Shown one piece after another: positions 7,856 to 48,618 of a stretch of 64,000 bases of DNA (its first letter is position 1; every line of letters begins with the position of its first letter). A program made the translations under genes and the position numbers. Location of the stretch: assembly GCA_044892525.1 (NCBI GenBank), contig CM097885.1:28212001-28276000 (forward strand). Direction: 5' to 3'. Under the pieces are notes generated by a model. The model worked only from the letters and a program-made list of their open reading frames with translations, did no database searches and was not told the DNA's origin. The stretch is from Schmidtea polychroa. Taxonomy: Eukaryota.

Positions 7856-7906
<51 letters not shown>

Positions 7907-10226: not shown

Positions 10227-10585
10227 TTTGCAAATATAGTTCCATGTCCTTTCATTCGTTTGTTTATACGCGATATTCCATGTCCTTTACGTTTTGGAGC
10301 TGGGGCTGGGGGCGTATCTTTTTGAAACATACCAGCAGCTCCAGGTAGAACCTTCCCTAACTCAGCTAAATCATTTGTTTTTAGGGATGGTAATATTTTC
10401 TGTTCATTCATAATAACATCTTTTGCAGTTTTCATACCAAAACTACCGATACGTTTAAGAATAGGAAGTGCAAATCTCCCTATTGTTTTTAACCAACCTG
10501 ATCCGTACTGTTTACCAATAAAATATGGTAATTCACCGCCAGATTGGATATCACTATACATACTAATAATATCGGAATTAGCCAT
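10223..10585 (-). CDS. Small Polinton virion protein, adenovirus pVI-like (amphipathic helix after putative adenain sites)
   Basis: IQSGG and QYGSG followed by WLKTIGRFALPILKRIG; basic C-terminus; ATGA overlap with MCP. Confidence 0.7.
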   Translation of the reverse strand: MANSDIISMYSDIQSGGELPYFIGKQYGSGWLKTIGRFALPILKRIGSFGMKTAKDVIMNEQKILPSLKTNDLAELGKVLPGAAGMFQKDTPPAPAPKRKGHGISRINKRMKGHGTIFAK

Positions 10586-11590: not shown

Positions 11591-12781
<1,191 letters not shown>

Positions 12782-12842
12782 TACAACAAGAAGATTTAAT
12801 ATTAAATTTAATGTCTGGTAATGAAGGATTAGCACCCATTGT

Positions 12843-13339
12843 TTATGATCGACTTCCTATTATTCCACCTAATAATGATATTGCTAAAGGTATCAATGCA
12901 CCGATAAATCCCCCTTGTTGTTTATATATAAAATTTTTCTCATTTGTTGACGATTTTTATTATTTACTAATGATAGCAAAGGTTTCCTATGTTTACTCAA
13001 TAATTGCTTTTTAGATTTACTGATTTTAATCTTGCCTTTGACTACTTTAAGTATAATATCGAGTAAATCATCGACAACATAATTTGGAAAAGATTGCAAA
13101 ATACTGTTTCTTTTCATACTGGGTGCTTTTAACAATGTATTGAAAAACGGGAAACTCCGATGATTTTTAACAACTTTTACTTTCTTAGTGGTTTTACTTT
13201 TAGTTTTAGGTTTAGGATTTTTCGAAATGAGATTCATTGCAGGAAAATTTTCTGTAATAAGTTCTTTAGATGGAGTATAACTAGTTGTTGGTGGAACTTT
13301 TGGTTGTTTTTTACTCGATATCCTTGTTTTTGAAAACAT
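12843..13339 (-). pseudogene. Basic core protein, adenovirus pX/Mu-like, frameshifted
   Basis: Homolog of 42445-42978; a 2-nt insertion near 12930 shifts the QQGGFIGALIPLAISLLGG tail out of frame. Confidence 0.75.
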
Positions 13340-13352
13340 GATTTATGTGTTT

Positions 13353-13991
13353 TCAAATTTGTTTTAAACTTTGTTTATATACCATGGCACCTTTTGGGTT
13401 GAAAATATCTGTTTTTACCCGTATATCATCAGGACATTGTTGTGTGAAATCGAGAAATATATACCCATGAGGTATTTTCGTAGCATCTTGAAATGCACTG
13501 ATAAGAAAATTACGGTTATTAGGGTATGCTTGTCGTCCAAGAAAATCGATGACGGTTGCATCTCTAGGATTCTTGAAAATAACTAGATATTGTACATTTA
13601 AATTACGTGTTCGATGTGCACCACCTTGATGAAATAGATTTTGTGTTATGAAAATAACTGTTACACCAACATGTCTGCTGATTTTTGTGAATAAATTATT
13701 AAAATCCTTTTCTTTATTGGCTTCTTGATACAAATTATCGATAATGATGACATCATCTTTCTTCAAACGACTTGACCAGTTTTTATCAAAACCCTTTACT
13801 ATTTTCATGTTTTTCAATTGACAGAAACTTGATTGTGTCAATCCATGTTCTTCATCGGCGCCCCTATGCCAATAAATATTGTTGAATTTTGTTTTGAACA
13901 AATTAGATTTTAGTAATTTACAAACAAATAATGTTTTTCCACTACCACTCGGACCAACGATTTGGTATACTGCATCATTTCTTAATTCCAT
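13353..13991 (-). CDS. A32/FtsK-like genome packaging ATPase
   Basis: Walker A GPSGSGKT; Walker B IIIDNL (IIIDDL in Mav2); SRH and ITQN motifs. Confidence 0.92.
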   Translation of the reverse strand: MELRNDAVYQIVGPSGSGKTLFVCKLLKSNLFKTKFNNIYWHRGADEEHGLTQSSFCQLKNMKIVKGFDKNWSSRLKKDDVIIIDNLYQEANKEKDFNNLFTKISRHVGVTVIFITQNLFHQGGAHRTRNLNVQYLVIFKNPRDATVIDFLGRQAYPNNRNFLISAFQDATKIPHGYIFLDFTQQCPDDIRVKTDIFNPKGAMVYKQSLKQI

Positions 13992-14096
13992 TTTTTTAAA
14001 TTTAAACTATATAATTATTGTTTATATTGATAATTTAAATGAACTCCGTTTTAAAATAACTATATATAACAGAGTTTTTATAATTATTTCATTAAA

Positions 14097-14561
14097 ATGC
14101 TTTCAAATATAAATTACAGGGCAAAAGCTGATGTATCAAAAATGGTATTTCCAATGGGGAAACCACAACAACTTATCAATAGAAGTAAAAAATATCCAAT
14201 AATATATTTCAAAACTGGTAAATGTAGAATTATGGGGTGTAAGGAAATAATCAAAGCTAGTGAATATAATGTTTATGATTTAGAAATACAATCGATAACC
14301 GTAACTTCCGATATAGGTTTTTCTTGTAATTTAAATAATTTGGCTAAATTAATACCATGCTCTTACGAACCAGAATTATTTCCAGCTTTGAGATATATAA
14401 AATATAACCCTATGTGTGTAAATATATTCGCTAGCGGTAAGATAGTAATTCTTGGAATAAAAAATATTGATTACAAATGTATAGTTGATAATATCATATC
14501 TGAAATTAAATCAATAATGGAAGGAAAAGAATTTTTAGATTTTTTATTATCACTTAATTAA
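14097..14561 (+). CDS. TATA-binding protein (TBP)-like protein
   Basis: YEPELFPAL...IFASGKIVILG matches TBP repeat 2; YFKTGKCRIMGCK matches a degenerate repeat 1. Confidence 0.88.
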   Translation: MLSNINYRAKADVSKMVFPMGKPQQLINRSKKYPIIYFKTGKCRIMGCKEIIKASEYNVYDLEIQSITVTSDIGFSCNLNNLAKLIPCSYEPELFPALRYIKYNPMCVNIFASGKIVILGIKNIDYKCIVDNIISEIKSIMEGKEFLDFLLSLN

Positions 14562-14682
14562 TTATTTATCATTGCAAATTCAATGCAATTAAAATGCATG
14601 ATTCTGATTGGTCAAAATCTAATTGGCTGATGATTATTTATAACAAAATGTTTTCGGTTTAGTTGTCATTTATTCAACAAAA

Positions 14683-15092
14683 ATGTACAACATACAAAGT
14701 TCCGCAATCACCTCAATGAAAGAGCATGCAAATTATGGTAATTTCAAATTTTTATTATTACATTAATATATATATTTTTTACAGATGAATATCAATCAAT
14801 TATCCTGCAAAGATTATGCTTCTATTATCCAGAATTAAATGAAATTCTACAAGATAGAGATCCAGCTATCATTCCGGATTTGGTATACAACCAAACTCGA
14901 ATCTGGATATTCGATATAATAAACACCTTTCTATGGGATATCAAGATAGGAAGGGGGATGAAAGAAATGAAAGCAGAGGCTCCTTGCATTTTCGGATGTA
15001 GCTGTTGCAATTTCCGTTATCAACAATATGTTGAATGGTGTTTGGTGAAGACTCTGAGAAATCATCACTCGAGTCAGATTGTATCAAAATAA
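14683..15092 (+). CDS. Unknown conserved protein with CxxGCSCC motif; intron 14738-14784
   Basis: In-frame splicing; homolog with the same intron in Mav2 (44232-44649). Confidence 0.75.
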
Positions 15093-15365
15093 TTTTTTTT
15101 TTTTTTTTTTTTTTTATGTTGAATTGTTTTGTTTTTGTAAATCGAAATAATAGAAATAATATAAGTAATAATAGTAATATTAGAAATAATAATAATAAAA
15201 AACAATATTTATAATAAAAACATTAATGCAACATTAATGCAAATGACATGCAATTTAAACAAAGACATGCAATTTAAACAAAGACATACAGCAATCTGAT
15301 TGGTTGATAAACAATAGTCATAGGTATAAAAACCCTGTACCATTTCATTTTAATCATTATTTACG

Positions 15366-15785
15366 ATGACAAAGAAAATTTCAAGCACTGAAAAGCCAAA
15401 AGTTGTTCCAGAACTTGTACAACCTGTTCAAATGTTCCACAACTATAAAATGTATTTTTTAAAAGAAGAAATCAATATAAAATTGGTGTCACCGATCAAG
15501 CTAATTCCAACTAAATTTCAATTCTTATCCGGCACGCTTTCAATGTTAGATGTTAAATCTATTGATGAGGTTTTCAAACGGTTGAATACGAATCTATCTT
15601 GTAATCAACATGCCTGGTTCAACAACAGATATGCAAGATTTTATGATTCATTTGATGAAATCGGTTTCAAAGAAAACGAAAATTGGTATATTGCAATTGC
15701 AATCCAAGGATATAAAGTTGATAATAATGATGTGTATTCTCCAATTTGGAAAATTATGTCTGCTAGACTTTCACAACTATTTTAA
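15366..15785 (+). CDS. Unknown conserved protein (possible OB-fold ssDNA-binding protein)
   Basis: Highly conserved with 45072-45482; upstream ATTGG and TATAAAAA; function is a guess. Confidence 0.75.
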   Translation: MTKKISSTEKPKVVPELVQPVQMFHNYKMYFLKEEINIKLVSPIKLIPTKFQFLSGTLSMLDVKSIDEVFKRLNTNLSCNQHAWFNNRYARFYDSFDEIGFKENENWYIAIAIQGYKVDNNDVYSPIWKIMSARLSQLF

Positions 15786-15918
15786 TGTTATATTTAATAA
15801 ATGTATTAGTCATATTTGTTTTTTCTCTTTATTAATTGCAACATTAATGCAAATGACATGCAAATTTAACAAAGAAAATCTATAAACAAACTTATAATAT
15901 AGTTTTAAAGTGTTATTA

Positions 15919-16253
15919 ATGACTACAGAAAAAGGTTAACATGATTAATTAAATACCGAATTATTTATTATTTAGAATTATTAATCAACTTTTTGTTGGA
16001 AAAGTTAGCAGAAATAGCTGGTGTAAAAATTGAGGATATATTATCTATTACAAATGCCTTAAATATCGGCTGGGTAGCTGAGAGTCAAGATTCAGGATTT
16101 GACAATCATGAAGAAACTCAAGAAATTGATGACGAAATCTATGAACCTATAGAGGAACCTAAAGATAATATTACGAATGATTGTATTGATCATGTCGTTG
16201 AAAATATAATGAAATGTGGAGATGACGATTGCGAATGTGTTAATAAATTTTAA
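15919..16253 (+). CDS. Unknown acidic protein with Cys-rich C-terminus; intron 15935-15975
   Basis: MTTEK|ELLINFLLEK after splicing; conserved in Mav2. Confidence 0.7.
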
Positions 16254-16297
16254 AATTGAATTATTTTCATTTAAATATACTATTAAAAACAATAACA

Positions 16298-16826
16298 TTA
16301 ATTTTTATTCATATATCTACAGAAAATATACATTATAACAACTCCAGTTGTAAGTTTTATATAGTTTTTCATTTTTCTTTTGATTTCATCAGTTTCTTTA
16401 AAATTGCAGGCCAGTTTATTTAATACACCCCATCCGCCATTGGCTTCTATCCATGGGGTAAACTTGGACTTGATTATCTAGAAATGAATATTATTAAAAT
16501 ATAGATTATAAAAGAAATCTTACTTCTAAAGACCAATGATAATAATGTTCTGAATCATGTTGACCTTTTGCAATGATTATCTTCATGTAGGTGAATCCTA
16601 CAATTATCCTTGTCCATTTCATGTCTTCATCGAAAAGACACTGAAATATTCTATTGAAGTAATACTTCTTGGTTTCCAGGGATTCCATCTCCATCATCTG
16701 CTGATAATCGATATGTTCACCTTCAATGATTTGTTCGGTTCGATTGATCAGGAAATTGAGGCTGTCGACTATATTCGCGGTGACAATTCCGTTTAGAACA
16801 TTTTCCATAAAATTTGGTTGCGACAT
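16298..16826 (-). CDS. Bcl-2 family protein (160 aa); intron 16478-16523
   Basis: BH1-like LFDEDMKWTRIIVGF, BH2 WIEANGGW in exon 2, C-terminal hydrophobic anchor. Confidence 0.85.
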
Positions 16827-16943
16827 TTCTAAAATAATTTAAAATATAATGTTTTTATTTATACTAATACCATATGATTTTGATTGGTTGATAGACTATA
16901 AATGTAAAAGAAAGGTTTTGATTTGATACACCATAAAAACTAT

Positions 16944-17910
<967 letters not shown>

Positions 17911-22429: not shown

Positions 22430-24142
22430 GTTTTTTCAATTCCTACAACCTCACTTCAGCTTTTATGGCTCCGAGCCCAACAATGGTGAACTCTTATATT
22501 TATTACTTTTAGAAGACTTGCCATTACACCGCAGTTTTAAACCTGCAAAAATTAATAAATTAGCACTCTAGCAATGAATGCAGTGTTAGAATTAAAGTGA
22601 ACTGGTGTCCCCATTATCTCAATGGCTTTCAACATGAAAATGCATTTAACGTGAATGTTGTACTTTTTAAAAATTCCAAGTAGGCACCACACTGTACACA
22701 CTCCCTGAAAATAAATTATTCAATTTTAAAAATTATGCCAAAACAATATACTATCTTTTGTAATTTATGCGGATTTTGAGACAGTTGGTATGACTGTGTG
22801 TTGGAATTTTGACGTAAAATAGAGAAAATTGATGTCACAATTGTCCTACCTTATTATGAACTAGTTTTATAACTTTTTCAAAGGGGGATCCGTGATGGAT
22901 TAACATTTGTTAACAAACACCATGTAGTATCCTCCGACAATACAGAACTTCTTTACATTGATATAAATAATTTGTATGGGTGGGCCTTAAGCCAAAAACT
23001 TCTATATAAGGATTTTAAATGGGTAACCAATAGAGAAGAGATAAATAAAATAATTTATTTTTGTGAATCTGCAGATTTGGAAGTACTTCCATTTGGATTT
23101 ACCTTGGAGGTTGATTTTGAAATTCATGATTCGATTCGCGACAAATTGGATGATTTTCCAGTTGCCGATGAAAAGATGTGTCCATCTGGCTCTAAAGTTG
23201 AGAAGTTGATGCTTACACATCATCCCAAGAAGAACTATGTTCTTCATTGAAGACTCATCAAGCTTTTTCTTTCTCTTGGTGTAAAATTAATTCATGTACA
23301 TTGGGCAATTCAATTCACAAACGATAATATTTTTAAAGATTACATCGATACCAATACCCGACTTATGGCGGAATCGAGTAATGCCTTGGATAAAAATTAT
23401 TATAAGTTATAAAATAATAGTCTTTACGGCAAGATCGTAGAGAATCTGAAAAAAACATCTGAATTTGCGGCTTTGTAATTCGGCTTCTAGGCTAATTACA
23501 TACACATCTAAACCAACGTTTAAAAGGACTTATGAAATTGACAATGACTTAGTATCAGTCTTGCTAAATAAGGAAGCTATTTGTTTAGATAGACCCAGCT
23601 ACATTTGCCAAACTGTACTGGACTTATCGAAACTTAGAATGTATCAGTTGTAGTATGAAAAGTTACAAAAATATCGTAACGAATTCAATTGTAAAATTTA
23701 TATCGTTGCAGCTGATACGGATTATTTTTTCCTTGAAGTTATTAACTGTAAGCTTGATGTTTTTTTACCTGCAATGATCCGTGATAGTTTACTAGACACA
23801 TCTAATTATGATATTTGTCATCCCTTATACAGTAAGAACCTTGATTTTGTCATTGGAAAGTTCAAAGACGAGAATAAAGGTCTTAAATATAAGGAGTGGG
23901 TTTTTCTTAGGCCAAAGTGTTATAGTTTGCTACGCGAAGATGAAACTAAAAAAGCAAAAGGAGTAACATTGAAAGGTAGTGACATAAAACATCAGTCGTA
24001 CCTGGAATGTTATAACACTAATCAAATTTTTTCTATACCACAAACTAAAATAACTAGCAAAAATCACCAGCTATTCATCATAAAAAATCCATCATACTCG
24101 CAACTCAAAGAATCAGCTGAAGATATACCGGATGTTATTTAA
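22430..24142 (+). pseudogene. Fossil Maverick pPolB with internal deletions, stops and frameshifts
   Basis: Fragments encode HYTAV, WCPH.LNGF, GTTLYTLP, VIYADFE, DINNLYGWALSQ, DLSKLRMYQL, FLRPKCYSL. Confidence 0.9.
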
Positions 24143-26347: not shown

Positions 26348-28234
26348 CGTTAAATCTATAAAATGGAAAACTTATAAAAATAAATAAATTAATAAAAAAT
26401 TTGGAAAAATTAAAACATTGACGTATTCCGAGAAACGAGTATGTATGGATGGAAAATGATGAGACGAATACAGATAAAATAATATAATGGGGGTGGAGGA
26501 GGTTTGAGAAAAAAAATTAATTAAAAATAAATAAATAATTTAGTAGCAATGTGAGAAACTCGAACATTATGGGAAACACAAGCCATGTAGAAATCCTAAA
26601 CAGTAATTGACAAAATAAACTAATTGGTTCCTCTCAAAATAAAATTACTTAAAGAGTCTGTTCGCATAATGGCGAAATGTCGCCTACCTAGTTATTTTGT
26701 CTTTAGAAAAATACCTTTTATGAAATTATTTTGATGTTGGTTGATTGATTAATTTGAACAATAGAAACGTATAAAAGGTAACGGAACTAATAACCAATTT
26801 TCAGTTGGTTGAAGATCGAAATGAACAACAAACAAGGAAAGCGAAGCATACTCTGATTAAGAATCACAACTAAATAAACAAAGAAAAAGTTGATAGATAA
26901 ATAAAGGCTGTTTTCCTTTGGGATTCTTACTTTGAGTTTATTGTCAAAATATGTAGATAAAGTGTGATTGACTATATTGAAAAAGTTTTGATTGAGTTTC
27001 AATAAATTATCTTGTGTTGGCCCAACCTGACCCGAACCCGACTCTTCATAATTTATTATAGTCCGAACTTGAAAAAAATTAATTCAAGCTAAAATATTGT
27101 AAATATCCTAAAACACAATTACTATTTTTATATTATTTTTATATATCAATATAACGCAAGGAGTATGTATGCTTATTGCTTATATTATTTAAAAACCGCA
27201 GAAAAGTATTAATATATCGTTTAAATCGGTTATAACAACAATTCTTTCTGTCAAAACTGAGAGTAATGGCGTTTAGTAATATAATATAGCCCAATCATAA
27301 AGACCGTATTAGACAAAATCATATTTATCAAGAATTTTGTACTAGATTTTCAAGTCCATGGTATCGAAATGCTGTCATTTTGGCTAATTAAAATTAAATT
27401 TATCTAAGCAAGGAAATTTACTCACGTAAATTTTATTTTAATTCATTCATCATCGGAGCAAATAAAATTATATTAAAAATTCATAATGAAAATATATTTG
27501 ATTACTTTTTAAAATTAAGCCCGGCCCGAACCCGTGTACGTTTCTGCTATGTACCGGTCATACAATTCAAATATAATTATGTTTATAATATAACAGAATT
27601 GAATCAATATCTATAATTATTAAAAACATATCAGTATATAAGCTTAAAATATGATATTCAATTATATACAAAAGAAAACAAAAATAAAGAAGAAAAAAAT
27701 TTGTTTTAATATTTAGAAAAAAACGTGGAGTTAAAAATTAGAAAATGTTAGTCAAGATAAACGTCAATAGTGTCAAATGAAGAATTCAAATTTCCAATTA
27801 CCAACAGTTCAAAAATACCATTCAGATATTTTATAGAAACAAGTTGAAAAAAGTATTTATTTGTATTATATATGAAACTTCACAAATAAAATTGTACAAA
27901 AGTGATCCAAAAATATTATAAAAAGCATTATAATTCATCTAACATTTTAAAGACATTTATAATTTTATATATAAACATAATTTTTATTATTCCTAACCAA
28001 ATTCATTCAACCTTTATAGTATAAAAAATACAATTAAAACTTCATTTTATCCTATTGGTAGTTGTTGGATATTAATTTTGCTAGCCAATCAAATAACTAG
28101 AAAAAAAGTATCCATTAGAAAATAAAACACAAATAAAATAATAATAAAAATTATATTAAAAATAGTTGTTACTGATAATTACAATTACATTCAAACCATT
28201 TATTTATAATTATCATTTTTGATAAAATGGCATG

Positions 28235-28397
28235 TCGATTAAAACAATTCACAATGCATTAAATGTTTTCACAAATCATCGATTAAACTTTTCATAAAGA
28301 ATTCAAATTATTCATTTTTTAATCCAATTGAAATGCTTTTTAATCTAATTAATAATTTTGTGAAAACATTTAATGCATTGTGAATTGTTTTAATCGA
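28235..28397. repeat. Inverted repeat, ~41-bp arms (MITE-like)
   Basis: TCGATTAAAACAATTCACAATGCATTAAATGTTTTCACAAA and its reverse complement. Confidence 0.8.
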
Positions 28398-28468: not shown

Positions 28469-28532
<64 letters not shown>

Positions 28533-28580
28533 CGACAGAATCACAGTCATCTTCAGGTAGAATTGAAAATCAAACTCAAT

Positions 28581-29717
28581 AGTAGATGGATTGGGCACCG
28601 CTGGCACAGGGCACCGCTAGCACAGTACCCCCCCCGTCGGTAAGATTTTCAAAAATATTCTAAGTCTAAAAGTACATTTTTTTTTCAAGGTCAAATTTAA
28701 ACAAAGACATATGACTCATCAAGGTCATTGAAACAAAGACCATGAGTCATCCTATGACTCATCAAGGTCATTTTCAAGGTCATATGACTCATAATATGAC
28801 TCATCAAGGTCAAAAAAATTTTCTCAAGGTCATTTAAACAAAGACCATGACTCATCAAGGTCATTTTCAAGGTCATATGACTCATAGTATGACTCATTTG
28901 ACCTTGAATTTTTTTTTCAAGGCCATATGACTCATCCTATGACTCATCAAGGTCATTGAAACAAAGACCATGACTCATAGTATGACTCATTTGACCTTGA
29001 AAAATTTTTTTCAAGGTCATATGACTCATCCTATGACTCATCAAGGTCATTTCCAAGGTCATATGACTCGTAGTATGACTCATTTGACCTTGAAAATTTT
29101 TTTCAAGGTCATATGACTCATCCTATGACTCATCAAGGTCATTTTCAAGGTCATATGACTCATAGTATGACTCATTTGACCTTGAAAAATTTTTTTCAAG
29201 GTCATATGACTCATCCTATGACTCATCAAGGTCATTTTCAAGGTCATATGACTCATAGTATGACTCATTTGACCTTGAAAATTTTTTCAAGGTCATATGA
29301 CTCACCCTATGACTCATCAAGGTCATTTTCAAGGTCATATGACTCATGGTATGACTCATTTGGCCTTGAAAAATTTTTTTCAAGGTCATATGTCTCATCC
29401 TATGACTCATCAAGGTCATTCTCAAGGTCATATGACTCATCCGATGAGTCATCAAAATTTTCAAGGACATTTTCAAGGTCATCTGAGTCATCCTATGACT
29501 CATCAAGGACATTTTCAAGGTCACGTGACTCATCCAAGGTCATTCCCAAGGTCATATGAGTCATCGCGATGACTCATCAAGGTCATATTATTATTTTTAA
29601 AAATACTATTATTTTATTTTTAATTTTTTCAAAGTTCCCGCCAACGAAAATTAATAATCGATAGCTCATTTTAAAGCTTAATCCAAGACCTTTCGAATGA
29701 GCTATATATGTTGTTAC

Positions 29718-29751
<34 letters not shown>

Positions 29752-29768
29752 ATTATTATTATTATTAA

Positions 29769-29814
<46 letters not shown>

Positions 29815-29984
29815 CTATATACTCCGAGTCTATATACTCCTAGTCTATCCGACAAAATATTTTGTCCCCCTATGGGTAATGCTCACAAGGGTACTGGTCA
29901 CGCTCAACAAATCAACAAATCAACAAAACATACATTTATTTAAACAATAAAATAATGTAAAATTAACAAAGGTAAACTAAATAT
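28581..29984 (+). repeat. Mav2 left TIR with TGACTCA/TCAAGGTCA tandem array
   Basis: Reverse complement of 47150-48618. Confidence 0.93.
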
Positions 29985-30613
29985 ATATAGTATGATATTC
30001 ATTAATCAGTGTTGAACAGGCTTGACACTTGCGAACATTCTTCTCATGACACTTAGAACAAACAATTACGTGACCACACGGTAAATACAAAACCGAAACT
30101 CGATTTTCTTTACAAATTGAACAAGTTAAATATCTTTTCTTAACATCTTTCAATTTTTTCGTTAGCTTATTTTCAATCAAATCGGCTTTCGCTATCCATT
30201 CATAAATCAATCTACTATATCCAGGTTTCAACCTTAAAAACATACAACTCCAAAAGTATTCATTCAGTGAATCGTTGTTTACTGCTATTTTTTCTAAGTA
30301 CATTAAATAACAAGATAACTTTAAAATGGATTTCTCATAATTAAATAAATCAAACAAATATTCAATAGAGGAATGTTTGAAAATTTTTAAAATATTTATG
30401 AGTTGCTTATCACTGTAAGTATCATGATTATTTATAAAATCTTCAAGTGTATTGTTAAAAAATGTCAATGAAATTTCAGAATAGGCTGGACTTAATTTTT
30501 CCTTATTTCTAGTAGGACTTCCTTGCTATAAATGACATATAAAAAAAAAATTGCCAAAATAATAAAGTTACCAAATGTGTTACACATTCATCGGTTTTAT
30601 TTGTATAAATCAT
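29977..30613 (-). CDS. IAP/MDM2-type C-terminal RING protein (putative E3 ligase, 196 aa); intron 30526-30571
   Basis: CSIC...LPCGHVIVCSKC....CQAC...IYI; upstream exon in phase 0; TATAAAT and CCAAT upstream. Confidence 0.82.
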
Positions 30614-30946: not shown

Positions 30947-31160
30947 TATAGCTGCAGACTATATATAAAAATATAGCTGCATGCCCACTGCAGACTATAT
31001 ATAAAAATATAGCTGCATGCCCACTGCAGACTATATATAAAAAATATAGCTGCATGCCCACTGCAGACTATATATAAAAAAATATAGCCGCATGCCCACT
31101 GCAGACTATATATAAAAAACATATAGCTGCATGCTCACTGCAGACTATATATAAAAAACA
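30947..31160. repeat. ~35-bp palindromic tandem repeat
   Basis: ATATAGCTGCATGCCCACTGCAGACTATAT plus A-run, about five copies. Confidence 0.9.
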
Positions 31161-31392
31161 TATAAAAGTCACCATTAAATACTTATAAAATAAACTTAAA
31201 AATTATAATAAAACAAACTTAAAAATTCGAAAAATATCTGATTACAAAATTTTATTGAATATATACAAATTTTAAATCAATATATTAATACAAGTTTTTA
31301 TACATTTTTTTTTTTATAAATCAAAATAAAAAGTTTTTTTTCAATATATACAAGTTTTTTGATCAAAAGTTTCTGTACAATTCTGAGTTGCC

Positions 31393-34300
31393 CTATTGAT
31401 CTTCGTCCCATTCGCTGTCGTCAAAACTGGGACTTGGAGCTGCACTGAATTCCTCATCATATTCGCTTAATTCGTCAACTCCTAAATAATGCCCAAATGC
31501 GTAACTTAAGTTTTTTCCTAGCCACGCGCGCTTATCATCATTATTACTTAGGGCAATTTTCGAATTTTTAAAAGTAAAAAGTTGGTGATTTCTAGTACCT
31601 ATTCTAGTCTGCGGTACAGAAATCACCTGATTTGAATGAAAGCAATTTAGATATGATTCGTGATTTATTGATGTCCCTGGTAATTTAACCCCTTTCGCTT
31701 TTACCGTTTCCTTACTACCTAAAAGACTATAACATTTAGGGCGTAAGAAAACCCATTCAGAATACCCTAATCCCTTGCTCTCATCTTTAAACTTCCCGAT
31801 GACCGAGTCAAGGTTCCTACTATACAAGGGGTGGGTTGGATCGTAATTTGACGTATCCAATAAATTATCAGAGATCATCTGAGGTAATAAAGTTGTTAAT
31901 TTTAAATTTTTTATTTCCAAAAAGAAACTGTCGGTATCACCGGCAATAATATTTATGATACATTTATATTGGCGTCTGTACTTCTCCAAATCAATATATT
32001 GGAGCTGGTACATCCGCAGTTTAGACAGATCTAGTACTGTTTGACCAATGTAGCTAGGTCTGTCTAAACAAATCACATCTTTTTCCAAATGTGCCGCAAT
32101 CAGATCTTGATCGATTCTTATGGACTTTCTGAAAGTCGGCTTTGAGGAGTATACTATCATCTTTTCGGATGAATTACACAACCTCAAATTCATTCTTTTT
32201 TTCAAATTTTCAACCGATTTACCGTAAAGAGAGTTATTATACAATTTAAACAAGTCCCTATATATCTCGCTAGTAGACTGAGATCGTAAAGTGGTGTTGG
32301 TGTCTATGTAGGATTTAAAGATAGGTCCTTGTTTAAACTTTATACACCTATGAATATTTACAACAACCGCACCTAATTCTATATACAATTTGAGAAGCCT
32401 CCAATGAAGAACATAGTTCCTCTTTGGCCAATGCGTAAGCATAAGCTTCTCAACTTTTGAATTAGGCGGGCACAACTTTTCCGGCGCAAGCGGAAAATCA
32501 TTCAAAAAGTCATGCACACATTCCGGAATATCGATATCGACCTCCATAGTATACCCATATGGAAGGTTATCAATATCCGTGTTCATACATTCAAGTAAAA
32601 CATCATTCAAGTTATTATTCACCCAAGAAAAATCACCATACGGAAGATTTTGGCTAAGAGCCCAACCATACAGATTATTTATATCAATGTACAATAATTC
32701 TGTATCATCTGAAGTAGCCGTGTAATGTTTGTTAACAAATGTTAACCCACCCCGGATACCTCCCTCATAGAAATTATACATTTCCATGTCCTGCAGAAGT
32801 TCTATTGGTTCCGTTAATGTCATAAGCGCTGAGGCCCATGACATACCGGGAATCCCGTAGAAATTAAGAGGATCCAGACCATTGTAAGCAATTGCCTTAC
32901 CGCGGAATTGCTGAAAATAATCTGCGAGGAGGTATACGTCCAATTTTAGGTAGATTAACATATAATCTAACAAATTATTACAGTTATGCTGACTCCAAAT
33001 TAGTTGAGCCTCAGCGTACTGATCTTCCGTAACATCAGACCAAATAGGAGGTAATTCTAAAGTCGATTCAAGAACATCTAAAGAAGTAGCGAAATTATAT
33101 GGAAAGATACCTTTAGAGTGAATCATCGACCCTTGAAAGACAGACGAAGTCAAAGGAAAAGTAGTTAAGGTTTTCACAGCTTTTGCTAAAGAACAATTAA
33201 CAAATTGCATGCTGTCAATAAAACGAACAGGCAATTTGTTAATATATGCAATTAAAGATATAAATTTTTCTGTAGAGGTAGGTATAATATTAAGTTCCCA
33301 AAGGGGAAAATCACTGAGACCATGTTTTAAAATATGGTGGAGGTCATAGCCTCGTAAATTATGAAAGACAACAGGTAACAATTTATTAATCCTGCGAGAG
33401 ACATTGCATTTCCTACATGCCGCTCCGACATATCTACCTGTAAAATGGCAATGATCTCTCACAGGATTAATAATAGATTTTTTACACAAATAACAAATAG
33501 TGGAAGATCGAAAGGCACGCTCCTGAGCAAAAGACAAAGTAGACATACCTTTACGACCTTCAAGATCATAATATGGCAGGACAATTGTGACAGCAATTTC
33601 CTCCACTTTCCTCAAAAAATCCAAAATACAATTAGGTCCAAAAAAATAATAATAAAATTTAGTGTGTGTATAATTATTAATTAATAAAAGACCTGCTGAT
33701 ATGGGTAAATGTATTTGATGATATGTTTCATGTTCTGGTAAAACCGATTCAAAATCGGCATAAATTACGAAGGGAGGTGTAACTGTTTTTGCGTAATCTG
33801 TGAATAATAAATCTTTATTTTTAGGAAGTGTATACAAAGTTGTGCCAGTCTGATTTTTACAGCATAGAGCAACATGCTGATCGAAAGCATTCTTATATCT
33901 AAAGCCATTTAAACAATGTGGGCACCAGTTACACCTTATTTGAACATTTACATTTTCATTTTCATGACAATTCATTAATTTGTCCAAGTCTGTCACGGCT
34001 GTATAATGATATTTATCTTTATTACTCAAAAGTAATAAATAAATTGGTCTACCGTCTATAACCTTGGAGCGATGTACTATATTAAGATGAGGGTGGTGAG
34101 CTACATAATCCTCAGAAATATCTAAATCAGAACTGGCTGGATTATAAGACAGAACGTTTATGCTCAAGTTTAAATCTCTATTTTTTCTTTCAAATTTGGG
34201 AATGTTGCATAGCCTCATCGGGCAATCAGTGTCTTCGTCATAATTTAATAGAGGTAAAAATTCTATATATTTGCCGGCTCTTTGGTGATTACGACCTATT

Positions 34301-35698
34301 TCTTCTCTTTTTAAAAGTGCAAGAATGCTATACAAGAAGCACTTATGGTCGTTGTTTTTAACGTTAATTATTGCATGTTTTAATTTTAAAGCCGATGGGG
34401 TTTTTATATAGCTATGTCCGGATAATCTACTAACGGGTGCGTATTTCGTTAAAATAAAATCTATTTCTAAAATATTCACTACTCGCCACCCGCTTCCTAA
34501 ATAGGTGAATTGCTCAATCTTTTCATTTAATTTGCTCACCCCCTCGTTTATAAAGTTTGATGTAAAAACTTGAGCATTGTTTGAAAAATAATTATCCCGG
34601 ATCTCCCCATCTTTTTCAAATTTAATTAAAATTGTGAATTGTATTTTTACATTGCCCATCTTTTCTATTTCCTCTATTAATCTATCTTCAATTTTTGATG
34701 TTAGGGCTATTTTAACCAGGTTTTCATTTCTTATATTAAATTTTAATGTTTTACGTGATCCATTCAAATCGGATTCAACAACTGGTTCAAACAAAGAGCC
34801 GCCTATTTGAAATATGTTGAAAGACGTTGAAGCTACACATTCATCATTGATGACTATCACTTCTTGTTGTGTAATGGGTGATTGTTGTGTAATGGGTGCT
34901 TGTTGTGTAAACGATGTTGAAGCTACACATTCATCTTTGCTGATGACTATCACTTCAGGTCGCGATAATTTATTAGGAATGCAATTTTTAATTAAACCAG
35001 CAGGTCTTTTAATAGAATCTTTTTTAATATTTATAATATCTTTTTTAATAATATTTATAGTATCTTTTTTAATAGCATCTTTTTTAATAGAATCTGTTTT
35101 TTCTTTTATAATATTTTTTTTAATATTTTTTAAATCTTTTTTAATATCTTTTTTTATATCTTTTTTAATAGTATTTTTTGGTAAATTTTTTTGTAATTTT
35201 TTATTTATTTTTTTAAATAAAACATTTTTTGATATCGAAAATTGCCCTAAGTGACAATGATGTTTATTAAAAAATTCCCTATATTTTACTTTTTCGCTCG
35301 TTACACATTTGGGGCATATAAAAAAGTTGAGCGAATTAAACGTCTTTTTGTAGTATTTTCTCATTGTGCGATGACATTTATCGCTATGTCCATTTGCAGC
35401 TTGGCAATAATTTGGGTATAGTTTACCTGTTAAATAATAAAATTAAAGTTTTATTTTTTTTTTTCTAATTGTTATTAATTGTTACATCTATAAGGATTTA
35501 TCATCATTTGTTATTTAATTCAAATGAACTATATAACAAATGATGATAAATCCTTATAGAAAATAGGTTAATATATTCGAGAGAATATTAGAGAGATTTT
35601 AGTAGATAGGTCAGATTATTATATGAATATGTTAAATATTAGAGAGATTTTAGTAGATAGGTCAGATTATTATATGAATATTAGACGAGTCAGATTAA

Positions 35699-35751
<53 letters not shown>

Positions 35752-36153
35752 TGAAGAGAAGTAGCTGCATGCCCACTGCAGACTACTATGTAGCTACATG
35801 CTTACTGTAGACTACATTATTATTATTAATATTATTAATATTATTATTATTATTATATTGAAGAGAAGTAGCTGCATGCCCACTGCAGACTACTATGTAG
35901 CTACATGCTTACTGTAGACTACATTATTATTATTAATATTATTATTATTATTATTATATTGAAGAGAAGTAGCTGCATGCCCACTGCAGACTACTATGTA
36001 GCTACATGCTTACTGTAGACTACATTATTATTATTAATATTATTAATATTATTATTATTATATTGAAGAGAAGTAGCTGCATGCCCACTGCAGACTACTA
36101 TGTAGCTACATGCTTACTGTAGACTACATTATTATTATTATTAATATTATTAA

Positions 36154-36202
<49 letters not shown>

Positions 36203-37741
36203 TTAACTATTGTAGATGCACATTGCAAACTACAAGGATTTATTTTATAACTATAATTTTGTAATCACTTTTTTAAATACTTTGATTATATTTCAAAAAA
36301 CATAGTATTTTCTTCATAATTTTCGTCATATTTTCATCATAATTTTGGTCATATTTTCATCATAATTTTGGTCATAATTTTGGTCATAAATCATTTTCAT
36401 TTTGTTCATAAATTTTCGTCATAATTTGGGCATAAATCATCATAATTTGGGCATAAATCATTTTCTTCATAATTTGGGCCTAAATCATCATAATTTGGGC
36501 ATAAATCATCATAATTTGGGCATAAATCATAAATCATCATAATTTGGGCATAAATCATTTTCTTCATAATTTGGGCATAAATCATCATAATTTGGGCATA
36601 AATCATCATAATTTGAGCATAAATTCATAATTCATTTTCTTCATAAGTTTGATCATAAGGTTCATCAAAATATTTAAGAAATTTTCATCAAAAATTAAAG
36701 AAATTTTCATCAAAATATTTAAAAAAAAGTGATTACGAAATTTAAATATCAAAAATATATATAAAATAAATAAATCTTACATTCTGATTCCATATCGGAA
36801 TCTGAGTCTTCAGCAACCGAGCTGAGGGTATTATCATCAATTGTTACATTTTCCATAAAATCTTCATCGATGGAATCTGAGTCTTCAGCAACCGAACTGA
36901 GGGCATTATCATCAATTGTTACATTTTCCATAATTTCTTCTTCATCGATGTCGACATTGAAATTAAACGCTAAAAAATAAAATTTTTAAAAATAAATTAC
37001 TAAAGTAAATAAATTTACTTTTTTCTTTGATAACCTTGGTTTGCCCAACATCAATAACTGGGGCATCCGATTGTCCAAGAAAAATAATATCTTCATCACT
37101 ATTTTCATTAACATTTTCTGTAATGCAAATTAATTTAATAAAAATTAAAATAAATTTACTTTTTTCTTTGAAAACATAGTTGTGCCCAACATCATTAACT
37201 GGGGCATCCGATTGTCCAAGAAAAATAATATCTTCATCACTATTTTCATTAACATTTTCTGTAATGCAAATTAATTTAATAAAAATTAAAATAAATTTAC
37301 TTTTTTCTTTGAAAACATAGTTGTGCCCAACATCATTAACTGGGGCATCCGATTGTCCAAGAAAAATAATATCTTCATCACTATTTTCATTAACATTTTC
37401 TGTAATGCAAATTAATTTAATAAAAATTAAAATAAATTTACTTTTTTCTTTGAAAACATAGTTGTGCCCAACATCATTAACTGGGGCATCCGATTGTCCA
37501 AGAAAAATAATATCTTCATCACTATTTTCATTAACATTTTCTGTAATGCAAATTAATTTAATAAAAATTAAAATATTAAATTTACCAAATATATTTTCCA
37601 CATTTAAAATGGCATCGTTTTCTGTAACTTCGTACCAGTCGAATGGTTCTAAAATAAAAGATAATAAAAATCGAATAAAAATAATAATAATTTACCGTTA
37701 GTCAAAAGACTTCTCAATACTCGATTCTTGTTGGTTTCCAT
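31393..37741 (-). CDS. Protein-primed family B DNA polymerase, 8 exons (37741-37696, 37648-37586, 37540-37442, 37399-37301, 37258-37160, 37117-37019, 36969-36781, 35426-31393)
   Basis: YADFE, DINNLYG, NNSLYGK, GDTDS, KAKG; all upstream exons have GT-AG boundaries and keep phase 1. Confidence 0.9.
35750..36130. repeat. ~100-bp tandem repeat in the pPolB intron
   Basis: Four copies containing GTAGCTGCATGCCCACTGCAGACTAC and a degenerate duplicate. Confidence 0.9.
36310..36650. repeat. ~21-bp minisatellite in the pPolB intron
   Basis: CATAATTTGGGCATAAATCAT repeats. Confidence 0.85.
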
Positions 37742-38216: not shown

Positions 38217-38631
38217 TTAAACATCAAATTTTTTGTACAATAACCAAGCTAAACAATGTTGACCACATGTTTGGGTCAAAGGATTTTGAAACATAGTTTT
38301 ATTATACACAATAGGTTTTCCCATTGTTTGTAGTTTTGATATCAACAAAGCTGGGTAATAGAAACCCATCGGATCGAACACGAATATATTACCAGGTTTC
38401 ACATATATAGCTATCCAATGTTCTCCACCAAGATGAGACGATTGAGTATTGACGATTATTGCTTGATTATTGCTCAAATATGGAATTTTATCAAGAGGAA
38501 AAACTCCAACAAATTCATTTCTCAATATCTGTTTTCCGATTTTATTGACCTGAACAGAACTATTTAAATAAATCCAGAGTATAAAAAAAAACAACTTACT
38601 CCATGATAACTTTTTGTGTTTCTGTATACAT
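38217..38631 (-). CDS. Adenain-like protease; intron 38560-38599
   Basis: GEHW, FDPMG, QTCGQHC; intron at the same position as in Mav1. Confidence 0.9.
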
Positions 38632-39852
38632 TTATACCAACACGGTTCTATTTGCAGTAATTTGAACTTCATTTTCAAATACTCCATATATTATAACATG
38701 TACTGGTTCAGTAATAGCTTTGGCAAACTTTATATCCAGTCGTAAATTCCCGTTTTGTGGTAATTGACTCTGATTTAAATCAAAATCAGGGGCTAAAACA
38801 AATGTAAAAAATGGGTATTTGCTTTTAAAATCTTCTAGTGTTATTCCGCAATTCAAATTTTTATCTAAATAACCCAGATTTCTAACAATACTCTGCATAT
38901 ATGTCGCACAGTAATTGTCATTCTCGAAATCTTGAATATATGTTTCTCTATAATCAGTATTTTTCGACAAAGTCAATGATGTAACACCAAAGTTTTTGAA
39001 AATTGAGCTGGACGCAGTATATGATCCATTATATTGTGCTTCACTTTGAAATGTTATCAGAATAAAATTAGGCATTCTTCTGTCACCAAATATTTGTTCT
39101 TTATAGAATGATGAAGCACCTTTAGCAATAGCAAATTGTACAATTTCCTTTGTTTTTAAGGGATAAATTGCATGTTTTGAATTAAGACCCAATTGATGAC
39201 CAGCTAATACAGAGGGGTCTACTCGAACTCTTCTCACCAATAATTTTGCATCAACTAATTGACATCTTGGTGCAGTAGTTGCACTAGTAAGAGATAATGC
39301 AGAATCAGACCTTTTCAATCTAATATGTACATTAACTCCCGGTAGTAAATATTTCGGTTGATCCATAAAATCAAGTTGTAATGATGAGCACATGGTGAAA
39401 ACCTTTGAGCCTTTTACCCACTTTTTTCTTTCATCATCACTGCCATAACCCATAGGAGTAAGACATGTATTTTTAGTATCGGAATTGTAATTTAAAATAG
39501 TTTCTATTAATGCCTTGTGAATGAATGTATTATTTCCGCCTTCAATCTTGATATTATTAAATCCCAACACTACATCTTTAAAAAGAGTATGAAACAGGAA
39601 ATTGTTCGGTATTACATCTGCATTGGCATCCAAAACTTTTCTATCTTTATCTACAACCTTAATCTGAACAGTCAATAAAGTATCGTTCAAATCTAAATAT
39701 TCGGTTTGTGAACCGTTAATATAAAACTCGATATCATTTCTACTATCTGTAATTGAATTCATAGGAAAAACTTCCTCAAATGCCCCAAATTCTATTACAG
39801 CCTGGGGCGATGGTCTATCAAATATACATAATTCAGATTTACCACAAATCAT
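38632..39852 (-). CDS. Major capsid protein (double jelly-roll)
   Basis: 406 aa; SELCIF, YLLPGV, GNLRLDIKF motifs typical of Polinton MCP; expected gene position. Confidence 0.9.
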   Translation of the reverse strand: MICGKSELCIFDRPSPQAVIEFGAFEEVFPMNSITDSRNDIEFYINGSQTEYLDLNDTLLTVQIKVVDKDRKVLDANADVIPNNFLFHTLFKDVVLGFNNIKIEGGNNTFIHKALIETILNYNSDTKNTCLTPMGYGSDDERKKWVKGSKVFTMCSSLQLDFMDQPKYLLPGVNVHIRLKRSDSALSLTSATTAPRCQLVDAKLLVRRVRVDPSVLAGHQLGLNSKHAIYPLKTKEIVQFAIAKGASSFYKEQIFGDRRMPNFILITFQSEAQYNGSYTASSSIFKNFGVTSLTLSKNTDYRETYIQDFENDNYCATYMQSIVRNLGYLDKNLNCGITLEDFKSKYPFFTFVLAPDFDLNQSQLPQNGNLRLDIKFAKAITEPVHVIIYGVFENEVQITANRTVLV

Positions 39853-40220
39853 TTTGCAAATATAGTTCCATGTCCTTTCATTCGTTTGTTTATACGTGAT
39901 ATTCCATGTCTTTTACGTTTTGGAGCATGAGCTGGAGCTGGTGCTGGAGCTGGTTTTTGAAACATACCTGCAACCCCGGGTAAAACTTTCCCTAATTCTG
40001 CTAAAGCATTTGTTTTTAGAGATGGTAATATTTTCTGTTCATTCATAATAACATCTTTTGCAGTTTTCATACCAAAACTACCGATACGTTTAAGAATAGG
40101 CAATGCAAATCTACCTATTGTTCTCAACCATCCTGATCCGTACTGTTTACCAATAAAATATGGTAAATCACCACCAGATTGGCTACCACTATACATACTA
40201 ATAATATCAGAATTTGCCAT
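39849..40220 (-). CDS. pVI-like small virion protein
   Basis: QSGG and QYGSG followed by an amphipathic helix; homolog in Mav1. Confidence 0.7.
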   Translation of the reverse strand: MANSDIISMYSGSQSGGDLPYFIGKQYGSGWLRTIGRFALPILKRIGSFGMKTAKDVIMNEQKILPSLKTNALAELGKVLPGVAGMFQKPAPAPAPAHAPKRKRHGISRINKRMKGHGTIFAK

Positions 40221-41225
40221 CTACTTTACGAAAATGTAATGTCAAATGAGTTTTTGAACCTTTTGGAAAGTTTATAAGTTTTCCACTATCATCACGAATA
40301 TTTATTTCTATATTGTTTATACATGAACTTGCTATTGGTAAATACATGGGATTATCGATATTTATATTGACAACTTCATCATGTTCATATTTGCCAATCC
40401 ATACCGATTTCAAAAGAGGAACACTGGAATCACCAACAATTATGGGTTCGATAATGTTAGTATATATGAACATTTGTTGATGATGTTCTAGTATTCTTGG
40501 TTTGCGTATACCAGTCGATTTTTCTCGATATTTTTGCTTATCTAATCCAAGTGAATTTGCCAAATTTTTATCAAATGTAACTTCGCAAATATCATCATTC
40601 AAACTGAAGGTAAACATCAAATCTTTCACAATTTCCAAATTTTTAAATATGTGTGAACAATTGAACTTTAAATATTTAAGTAAATCATCAAGTTTATCAA
40701 AATATAATTCATCAGCAAAGGTAAATGATTCTTCAACTTCATCATTATACGACACAGATATTTTGATTTCTTCTTTCATTACACTGTTTGCTTCAAATAG
40801 ATTAAAACGTAATAAATACTCGGTCTCCGTAACAATATTTTTCAACTTATTGCAACCCATTCGTTTGGCATCTTCAATAGTTTCGAATGTTATTGTAAAT
40901 GGTTTAAAATCACAACTGATATTTAATCCATCCTTGTAAAACATATAGCAATGCGAATCTAATATTTGATTCGGAATATGATATGTTTTATCATAATTAC
41001 TGATAACAAAGATACCGCTACATGTTTTCACAATATTCCTTTTGAAATCAATCTTACATTGACTATAAAATGGGAATGTGTTGTACACGAATGTAAAATC
41101 TTGCAGTGCAACTTCCCAATCCCCATTTAAAGAAATCGGATTCTGAAGATTGACCATGAATTTACTGGCTTGATTGTCTGGATGAATTAATGGACAACTA
41201 TTGCTCGGCAAAATAGTATAAAAAT

Positions 41226-42383
<1,158 letters not shown>

Positions 42384-42444
42384 TACAACAAGAAGATTTA
42401 AAATTAAATTTAATGTCGGGCAATGAAGGATTAGCACCCATTGT

Positions 42445-42978
42445 TTATGATTGATTTCCTACAACTCCACCTAATAATGATAATGCCAGAGGTATTAATG
42501 CACCAATAAATCCACCTTGTTGTTTATATATAATTTTTCTCATTTGCTTACGATTTTTATTATTTACTAAAGATAACAATGGTTTCCTATGTTTGCTCAA
42601 TAAATGCTTTTTTGATTTACTGATTTTAATTTTGCCTTTGACTACTTTAAGTATAATATTGAGTAAATCATCGACAACAAAATTTGGGAATGATTGCAAT
42701 ATATTCATTCTTTTCATACTCGGGGCCTTTAACAATGCATTAAAAAATGGAAAACTGCGATGATTTTTAACTACTTTTTTACCGGTTTTACGGGTTTTAC
42801 GGGTTTTACGTTTAGGTTTAGGATTTTTCGAAATAAGATTCATTGCAGAGAAATTTTCAGTTACAAGTTTTTTAGATGGTGTATAACTAGTTGTTGGTGG
42901 AACTTTTGGAACTTTAATAGTCTTTCTAATACCTTTTCTTAATTTCCTAATATTTTTCACCCTTGCTTTTAGAAACAT
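42445..42978 (-). CDS. Basic core protein, adenovirus pX/Mu-like
   Basis: Lys/Arg-rich body ending QQGGFIGALIPLALSLLGG, resembling the pX cleavage site and hydrophobic tail. Confidence 0.75.
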   Translation of the reverse strand: MFLKARVKNIRKLRKGIRKTIKVPKVPPTTSYTPSKKLVTENFSAMNLISKNPKPKRKTRKTRKTGKKVVKNHRSFPFFNALLKAPSMKRMNILQSFPNFVVDDLLNIILKVVKGKIKISKSKKHLLSKHRKPLLSLVNNKNRKQMRKIIYKQQGGFIGALIPLALSLLGGVVGNQS

Positions 42979-42996
42979 TATTATTCATAGAGGTTT

Positions 42997-43623
42997 TCAA
43001 CTTTGTTTATAAACCATGGCACCTTTTGGGTTGAAAATATCTGTTTTTACACGTAAATCATCGGGACATTGTTGTGTGAAATCAAGAAATATATATCCAT
43101 GAGGTATTTTTGTAGCATCTTGAAATGCACTGATAAGAAAATTACGATTGTTAGGGTATGCTTGACGTGCAAGAAAATCAATCACTGTTGCATCTCTAGG
43201 ATTCTTGAAAATGACTAAATACTGTACATTTAAATTACGTGTTCGATGTGCCCCACCTTGATGAAATAGATTTTGAGTTATGAAAATAACTGTTACACCG
43301 ACATGTCTGCTGATCTTTGTAAATAAATTATTAAAATCTTTTTCTTTATTAGCTTCTTGATACAAATCATCGATAATAATGACATCACCTTTCTTTAATC
43401 GGCTGGACCAGTTTTTATCGAATCCCTTTACTATTTTCATGTTTTTTAATTTACAGAAACTTGATTGAGTTAATCCATGTTCTTCATCAGCACCCCTATG
43501 CCAATAAATCCTGTTGAATTTTGATTTGAATAAATTTGATTTTAGTAATTTACAAACAAATAATGTTTTTCCACTACCACTCGGACCAACGATTTGGTAT
43601 ACTGCATCATTTCTTAATTCCAT
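42997..43623 (-). CDS. Packaging ATPase
   Basis: GPSGSGKT, IIIDDL. Confidence 0.93.
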   Translation of the reverse strand: MELRNDAVYQIVGPSGSGKTLFVCKLLKSNLFKSKFNRIYWHRGADEEHGLTQSSFCKLKNMKIVKGFDKNWSSRLKKGDVIIIDDLYQEANKEKDFNNLFTKISRHVGVTVIFITQNLFHQGGAHRTRNLNVQYLVIFKNPRDATVIDFLARQAYPNNRNFLISAFQDATKIPHGYIFLDFTQQCPDDLRVKTDIFNPKGAMVYKQS

Positions 43624-43722: not shown

Positions 43723-44160
43723 ATGTTAGCAAATATAAATTATCGAGGAAATTTTGATGTATCGAATATGAGGTTCCCACCAGGGAAACCTCAGCAAATT
43801 ATCGATAGAAGCGGGAAATATCCGATAATATTTTTCAAGACTGGTAAATGCCGAATCATGGGATGTAAGAAACCTTTGGATATTAATAAATTACAATATC
43901 GAATAAATAATATTAAAATCCAATCAATTACCGTTACTATGGATATGGGACATAGTATCAATCTATATAACATGTCGAAAAAATGTGATTGTATGTTTGA
44001 ACCGGAATTGTTTCCGGCACTAAGACTAATAAAATATAACCCTATATGTGTCAACGTGTTTGCTAGTGGAAAGGTTGTCATGTTGGGGTTGAGAAATTTG
44101 GAGTATAGAGAATTTGTTGACAATGTTCGAAATGAGATAATTTCATTGGTCGATTTTTAA
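43723..44160 (+). CDS. TBP-like protein
   Basis: FFKTGKCRIMGCK; IQSITVT; FEPELFPAL..VFASGKVVMLG. Confidence 0.88.
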   Translation: MLANINYRGNFDVSNMRFPPGKPQQIIDRSGKYPIIFFKTGKCRIMGCKKPLDINKLQYRINNIKIQSITVTMDMGHSINLYNMSKKCDCMFEPELFPALRLIKYNPICVNVFASGKVVMLGLRNLEYREFVDNVRNEIISLVDF

Positions 44161-44649: not shown

Positions 44650-45071
44650 ATGTATTTTTGTATCTGTTGTGTTTTTTATATTTGAAATAGTAATAAATAA
44701 TAGTAATAATAATAATATTAATAATAATAATAGAAATAATAATAGAAATAATAATAGTAATAATAGAAATATGAATAGTAATAATAATAGAAATAATAGT
44801 AAAAAAAAAACATTAATAATAATAATGAAACACCTTATTAATAAATCTGTAAATAGAACATATAACAAAACATGTAATAATTAAAACATTAATAATAAAA
44901 CACATAAATAATAAATCTGTAAATAGAACATATAACAAAACATGTGACAATGCAACATCAATGCATTTTGAATGCAATTTGAAACAAAGACATGCTGTAA
45001 TCTGATTGGTTGATAGACATGAGTCAAAGGTATAAAAACCCTGTAACATTTCAATTTATTCATTATTCACG

Positions 45072-45482
45072 ATGACCAAGAAAATTTCAAGCACCGAAAA
45101 ACCAAAAGAAATGGTACAACCAGTTCAAATGTTCCACAACTACAAAATGTATTTTTTGAAAGAAGAAATCAATATGAAATTGGTTGCACCAGTCAAGCTA
45201 ATTCCAACTAAATTCGAATTCTTATCCGGCACGCTTTCAATGATTGATGTCAAAACTATTGATGATGTTTTTAAACGGATAGATTCGAATCTATCGTGTA
45301 ATCAACATGCATGGTTCAACAATAGATATGCAAGATTTTATGATGCTTTTGATGAAATCAGTTTCAAAGAAAATGAAAATTGGTATATAACAATAGCAAT
45401 CCAGGGATATAAAGTTGATAATAATGATGTATATTCTCCTATTTGGAAAATTATGTCTGCTAGACTTTCACAAATATTTTAA
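45072..45482 (+). CDS. Unknown conserved protein (possible OB-fold SSB)
   Basis: Homolog of 15366-15785. Confidence 0.75.
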   Translation: MTKKISSTEKPKEMVQPVQMFHNYKMYFLKEEINMKLVAPVKLIPTKFEFLSGTLSMIDVKTIDDVFKRIDSNLSCNQHAWFNNRYARFYDAFDEISFKENENWYITIAIQGYKVDNNDVYSPIWKIMSARLSQIF

Positions 45483-46074: not shown

Positions 46075-46589
46075 TTATTTAAAAAAACGACATAAAACAT
46101 ATAAAATAGCAACACCTGTTGCAAGTTTTAAATAGTTTTTAAATTGGATTTTTTGCTGATCTAATTCTTTTGCATTTCTGGCGAGTCGATTCAGCACGCC
46201 CCATCCGCCATTGGCTTCAATCCATGGCTGAAACTTTGACTTGATTATCTAGAAAATATATATTAATAAAATATAGATTATAAAAGTATTACTTCTTGAG
46301 ACCACTGATAATAGTGCTCAGAATCCAATAGGCTTTTTTCAATTATTATCTTCATATAAGCGAACCCTACTAATATTCGGGTCCACTTCATCTCCTCGTC
46401 GCATAAGCAATTAAATATTCTATTAAAATAGAATTTCTTTGTTTCGAGGGAATCGGAATTGAGGACGTCCTCATAATCAATGTGATTACCTTCTATAATC
46501 TTTTCGGTCCGATCGACCAGGAAAATTAGGCTTTCCATAATATTCTTGTTGATGAGTTCTCTGCACATATTTTCCATTAAATTAGACAT
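46075..46589 (-). CDS. Bcl-2 family protein; intron 46249-46292
   Basis: KWTRILVGF (BH1-like), WIEANGGW (BH2), tail LATGVAILYVLCRFFK. Confidence 0.85.

Positions 46590-47149: not shown

Positions 47150-48618
<1,469 letters not shown>

Follow-up and report, generated by a model that had tools for sequence, protein, structure and literature searches.

Mavericks, or Polintons, have long terminal inverted repeats that start from AG, a short target duplication and a length of 15–25 kb. In C. elegans, the repeats of these elements are long (744 bp) and putative factor sites are described in repeats that come largely from Polinton ends (10.1101/2024.01.15.575659). The consulted excerpts of the papers on Maverick/Polinton repeats describe neither a dense two-word array nor a motif switch between sister families, both of which are seen in the elements reported here, Mav2 and Mav1 (10.1101/2024.01.15.575659, PMC8532177). 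Planarian Polintons are described as PIWI-repressed and desilenced during differentiation (PMC8532177; PMC10558129), and early in Hydra regeneration a Maverick is reported to fall into one cluster with Jun, Fos and CREB (PMC13465017). The planarian and Hydra observations concern other elements than Mav2.

The closest working analogue of the Mav2 array is the baculovirus hr. The hrs are described, in the excerpt consulted, as arrays of 390–880 bp in which every ~72-bp unit contains a palindrome of 30 bp together with CRE/TRE words, and in which activity tracks the CRE plus TRE count (PMC13513840). A repeat unit with a central palindrome and bZIP words between is likewise true of the 93-bp unit of Mav2. 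The hrs are, however, dispersed and CRE-dominated, and as described require viral IE1 for full activity, whereas the Mav2 array, dominated by TRE words and combined with a nuclear-receptor word, occupies each terminal repeat of an integrating element. An hr has an EcoRI-centred 30-bp palindrome, a dispersed location and an IE1 partner; the Mav2 array has another palindrome, a terminal place and a Maverick gene set, and an IE1-like gene was not found in Mav2. At most, and by analogy, the Mav2 array may work like an hr. By mode of replication, the closest system is the adenovirus terminal repeat, with host-factor sites, including ATF/CRE, on a protein-primed linear DNA genome (PMC2685984). As described there, this repeat is 212 bp with few sites, whereas Mav2 has ~70 sites of other factors over 900 bp. 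Host-factor arrays in viral repeats are a known principle; for the form seen in the Mav2 repeats, a literature search that covered few subscription journals or Repbase reports found no AP-1/receptor array described in Mavericks.

The window, which is the whole stretch of 64,000 bases analysed, contains Mav2 at 28581–48618. This is a Maverick of 20,038 bp that starts with AGTAG and is flanked by the 6-bp target duplication CTCAAT on each side (28575–28580 and 48619–48624, both read on the forward strand). The left terminal inverted repeat of 1.4 kb (28581–29984, forward) was aligned to the right arm (47150–48618, reverse). There are 17 differences between the arms in 1403 aligned bases (18 are listed, one of which is a gap artefact), and the Mav2 insertion is therefore young. 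The gene content is likewise that of a Maverick/Polinton, with a family B polymerase, an rve integrase, an A32 ATPase and an adenovirus-type protease.

The polymerase ORF of 1323 aa (31393–35364, reverse) is assigned to family B on three catalytic-type motifs found by pattern (DINNLY, KLYNNSLYGK and GDTDS), and it has zero profile matches in Pfam, PHROGs, NCBIfam and PDB. The polymerase gene is flanked by tandem arrays (30952–31164 and 35712–36165, with 36-bp and 104-bp units) that share GCTGCATGCCCACTGCAGACTA and have no match in the motif panel. Upstream of it is a spliced acidic gene with four tandem 141-bp exon-intron copies (36300–37740). A third Maverick polymerase, decayed and with several breaks, is found at 22522–24088.

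A block on the reverse strand at 38217–43623 encodes a C5 protease (Peptidase_C5, E 5e-6), presumed major and minor capsid proteins, an rve integrase with a chromodomain (E 1.3e-5, below the cut-off) and an A32-type ATPase (Pox_A32, E 3.6e-7). The capsid labels are presumed from ORF size and place. Mavericks have a double jelly-roll major capsid protein, and the presumed counterpart in Mav2 is a 406-aa ORF with 171 relatives and with no PDB or profile match. In viral contigs the capsid and polymerase queries had zero relatives, and in metagenomes they gave one distant contig of 1125 bases; no further terminal repeats came from these searches. The presumed capsid frame of Mav1 (10066–10226) is broken near 10066–10068. 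Both integrase ORFs contain an (AAT)n tract (41859–41994 and 12221–12392) bounded by GT/AG on the coding strand, and therefore resembling an intron filled by a microsatellite, through which the frame stays open as a run of Ile codons.

Mav2 also encodes a TBP-like protein (43723–44160, forward; Pfam PF00352, E 1.3e-15), a RING protein and, at 46278–46589 on the reverse strand, a piece of a Bcl-2-like ORF that is 63% identical to a Mav1 ORF with a weak Bcl-2 match (E 0.00085, under the curated cut-off). The TBP-like proteins of the two Mavericks (43723–44160 and 14097–14561) are ~60% identical, as against 87–97% for their neighbours. Beside the terminal repeats (29977–30303, 46078–46589 and 16400–16826) are the RING-finger ORF and a Bcl-2-like gene, apparently of two exons, which are possibly anti-death cargo. 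Rfam gave 20 weak matches, all well under the gathering scores, and no RNA family.

The motif array of the left arm (28684–29585, forward) contains 35 exact copies of TGACTCA (31 forward and 4 reverse) and 31 of TCAAGGTCA (26 and 5). Its mirror in the right arm (47553–48510, reverse) is ~52 bp longer and has 35 and 32 exact copies in either orientation. The sequence TGA(C/G)TCA of an AP-1/TRE element is thus present 35 times per arm, and the YCAAGGTCA sequence of an NR5A/FTZ-F1 response element is present in 31–32 exact copies. Only 3 AP-1 words and no TCAAGGTCA are found in the remaining 62,142 bases of the window, and first-order Markov models of the array, run 2000 times, gave means of 0.45 and 0.05 with maxima of 4 and 2, respectively. 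This bears out the first-pass annotation, which had reported dozens of both words mirrored at the other end. It had also described the array as made almost wholly of the two words in alternation, and neither point holds. The exact words make up 58% of the left and 56% of the right array, a share that rises to 78% and 77% when 9-mers with up to 2 mismatches and a third word, AACAAAGAC (4 copies in the left array, 4–5 per arm), are included. There is no simple alternation; the main arrangement is of paired AP-1 words, the members of a pair being 12 bp apart, and the receptor word stands two bases ahead of an AP-1 word. Presumably other receptors, ERR for example, might also bind words of the TCAAGGTCA type. 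E-box words at the junctions of receptor and AP-1 words were set aside, as CANNTG arises from any two-base spacer.

The core of the array is a 93-bp higher-order repeat in ~8.6 copies. Palindromes with 10–13 bp arms, at 28992, 29085, 29177, 29270 and 29364, consist of opposed FTZ-F1-type words flanking an A/T run. Among the receptor words, 32 of 38 are oriented inward and the reversed ones build the palindromes; hairpins alone therefore cannot explain most of them. The array spans only part of the inverted repeat and begins 104–108 bp inward of the element tips. The tip segment ahead of it (28581–28683, forward) has a 16-bp direct repeat (28593–28625) and a C-run, and its inner part is swapped in related copies. 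Immediately inward of each array is a module of the repeat that contains TATATA twice (29813–29913, forward, on the left); of this, 29829–29913 is 95% identical to the Mav1 repeat, and the module is possibly an inward core promoter.

Mav1, the second Maverick of the window (1988–17910, target duplication TTTATT), has most core proteins 87–97% identical to those of Mav2, and the ends differ. The lead word AACAAAGACATA, presumably of SOX/TCF type, is common to the ends of both elements, and is followed by a CRE in Mav1 and by an AP-1/TRE word in Mav2. In the whole window there are 4 copies of the CRE TGACGTCA, all of them at the Mav1 ends. The left end (1988–2240, forward) has the lead word, one TGACGTCA (2024) and then a 27-bp tandem unit, and the right end (17564–17910, reverse), next to the duplication, has three TGACGTCA (17837, 17855 and 17867) with the lead word and the 27-bp unit. 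Compared with the left end and its single CRE, the right end is thus two CRE words richer, and it has in addition a G/C-rich block (17790–17836). We take a RUNX-like word in the 27-bp unit, found with a loose pattern, as a lead only. By sequence, the difference between TRE in one sister and CRE in the other would be a switch of the two classic bZIP sites, which are one base apart (TRE, TGACTCA, and CRE as defined in the consulted part of PMC13513840).

The same vocabulary is found inside Mav2. In the promoter-like stretch at 44982–45074 (forward), AAACAAAGAC (44982), ATTGG (45005), TGAGTCA (45020) and TATAAAA (45031) are packed into 56 bases upstream of the ORF that starts with ATG at 45072. 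The TGAGTCA is the sole TGA(C/G)TCA in the 17,165-base Mav2 interior, and AAACAAAGAC occurs 3 times across both interiors, always within this promoter pair, and not at all in 28,041 flank bases. In the Mav1 counterpart, CCAAT and TATA are accompanied by a pair of lead words but by no AP-1 word. The location of lead and AP-1 words beside CCAAT and TATA indicates that the array vocabulary is also used by the element in a promoter. Neither this copy, the CRE counterpart in Mav1, the third word nor the palindromic build had been recorded in the first-pass annotation.

Comparison of the arms addresses whether changes spare the words. There are 13 differences within the array (a fourteenth listed one, at 28768, was produced by the 52-bp gap and is excluded). 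Those private to one arm fall inside words in 11 of 13 cases, where words make up 699 of the 900 aligned bases (p 0.75). For receptor words, the motif was counted as kept according to the S4 probe table of a study of Schistosoma FTZ-F1, which, in the part consulted, bound 7 of 7 YCAAGGTCA probes, 0 of 2 CCAAGGCCA probes and 11 of 37 probes overall (PMC8673669). The motif is retained in 8 of 11 shared variants, as against 2 of 10 private events (Fisher p 0.03); with types collapsed, this becomes 4 of 7 against 2 of 10 and is non-significant (p 0.16). One shared receptor variant, TCAAGGCCA, is similar to the unbound type CCAAGGCCA. The spacer between paired AP-1 words has 5 forms that are found in both arms. 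An even spread of substitutions had been named in advance as evidence against function, and the outcome is divided: shared variants mostly keep the motif, but private differences do not spare the words. All four centre C-to-G flips are within AP-1 pairs that turn into perfect hairpins, for which template switching suffices and selection is not needed. Hairpin correction could be the source of part of the word conservation.

Further variation was sought in public sequencing runs, 4 of the 23 listed being compared with 28531–28760 (7965, 2362, 3 and 75 contigs), so that population variation covers the first 76 bases of the array (28685–28760). All 4 of the common differences listed there are in spacers, which make up 16 of the 76 positions (nominal p 0.002); 3 of the 4 are indels, of which two fall in base runs, some may stem from other units of the array, and differences close to contig ends go unlisted. 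Among the 15 joints listed, out of a set with 16 more, 11 replace 54–111 bases between the tip and the array with both kept, each joint being seen in 1–2 contigs with 20–44 letters on the short side. In the run labelled organism B, the three words form a tandem of 33 bp. In one X7 contig, a CRE stands two bases after the receptor word and is itself followed by the AP-1 word. There are hints here that the word vocabulary outlasts the surrounding DNA, and the comparative signs together point to conserved words and variable spacers. Many different flanking sequences are joined to the tip in the contigs, and the left flank is in some continued by sequence like the right flank; both observations fit the called boundaries and a large family, although summed contig depth in the runs is not a copy number. 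There is no RNA run among those listed as carrying the sequence. A search of viral contigs with a 19-base array pattern gave 4 single matches with no surrounding array, which are attributed to chance.

The array is likely an enhancer (probability roughly 0.55), a switch for the element that would be bound by bZIP factors of the host and by a nuclear receptor of NR5A type. The first-pass annotation had proposed an enhancer coupled to stress or wound signalling and a nuclear receptor, or else host-factor sites that assist the replication origin. Its reading is partly supported, indirectly, by the exact matches to the TRE/AP-1 word and to the FTZ-F1 probes and by the comparative signs. Among the points against an enhancer are the private differences within words, the missing AP-1 word in the Mav1 promoter and the position of the left array downstream of the polymerase gene. 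The motif panel also matches other repeats, such as the 141-bp repeat with three motifs 4 times each. The closest inward-read gene to any array is the Bcl-2-like ORF, 964 bp from the right array.

It is unlikely, on balance, that the array is a neutral minisatellite in which slippage and fold-back amplified a TGAC/GTCA-rich seed that matched two motifs by chance, with conversion homogenising the units. Amplification of the 93-bp unit makes its copies non-independent, and copy number alone is therefore little proof of function. The two words are not independent of each other either, as they share TCA and GTCA. The element contains many other motif-free tandem repeats, private changes strike the words freely, and the flips agree with hairpin correction. 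Against this reading stand the CRE at the matching place in Mav1, the internal promoter copy, and the persistence of the words where the adjoining tip DNA is swapped and in another organism's run.

A role in replication is not exclusive of the enhancer reading and the two are compatible, although it is quite unlikely to be the explanation of the array. Host factors near the tip would here aid protein-primed initiation, or the displaced strand would fold on the palindromes. There is precedent in the consulted portions of the literature for both adenovirus repeats, whose NFI, Oct-1, Sp1 and ATF sites are reported to aid replication (PMC2685984), and baculovirus hrs, which are origins as well as enhancers (PMC13513840). 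The single-strand fold of the array reaches -178 kcal/mol, compared with -82.5 ± 5 when letters are shuffled (20 shuffles) and -158 ± 5 when word order is shuffled (0 of 30 as low). Most of this excess is nevertheless a by-product of self-complementary words, with a smaller share from word order. The distance of 104–108 bp from the tip and the length of 900 bp also argue against such a role, as do the recurrence of the words in the internal promoter and the structure of Mav1, which has no comparably long array and in its left end no palindrome arm of at least 9 bp. It is improbable that the words are recognised, during integration or packaging, by a protein of the element itself, such as a terminal-protein part of the polymerase, a core protein or the integrase, with the likeness to host motifs secondary. 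The array is at both ends, and several ORFs are without a family match. Among the scanned ORFs, though, with spliced genes taken as single exons, the TBP-like protein alone belongs to a family of sequence-specific DNA-binding proteins, bZIP domains and receptor-type zinc fingers being absent, and the integrase and ATPase are 91% and 95–97% identical to those of Mav1, whose array differs.

Under the enhancer reading, slippage and fold-back would have duplicated a small module of lead word, two bases and bZIP word and so given rise to the array. Its lead word may have passed from CAAAGACA to CAAGGTCA by two changes, with the intermediate CAAGGACA found in the array, and the 93-bp unit would have been amplified afterwards. 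Host factors bound at both ends would act first, opening up the element and driving transcription of its CCAAT/TATA genes, and the TBP-like protein of the element would act later. A wider proposal is more tentative and rather doubtful: that each Maverick family of one animal genome combines near-identical core genes with swappable terminal host-factor arrays (AP-1 and FTZ-F1 in one, CRE and another word in the other), so that different families would be activated in different cell states, for example in injury-activated stem or germ cells. Present in so many copies, the sites might in addition anchor the free genome at open chromatin or rewire the host AP-1/FTZ-F1 network. A family-specific terminal code would name candidate host factors for the activation of animal Mavericks. 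In a regenerating flatworm, if that is what the host is, such a high-copy element would connect an endogenous virus with injury signalling and would supply the genome with a great number of AP-1 and FTZ-F1 sites.

Outside the two Mavericks, the window has related intronless kinase genes and a remnant (1011–1817, 53393–54238 and 28168–28356), a CENP-B/Tc5 ORF (57247–57801) and a piece of an HMG-box gene (61282–61650).
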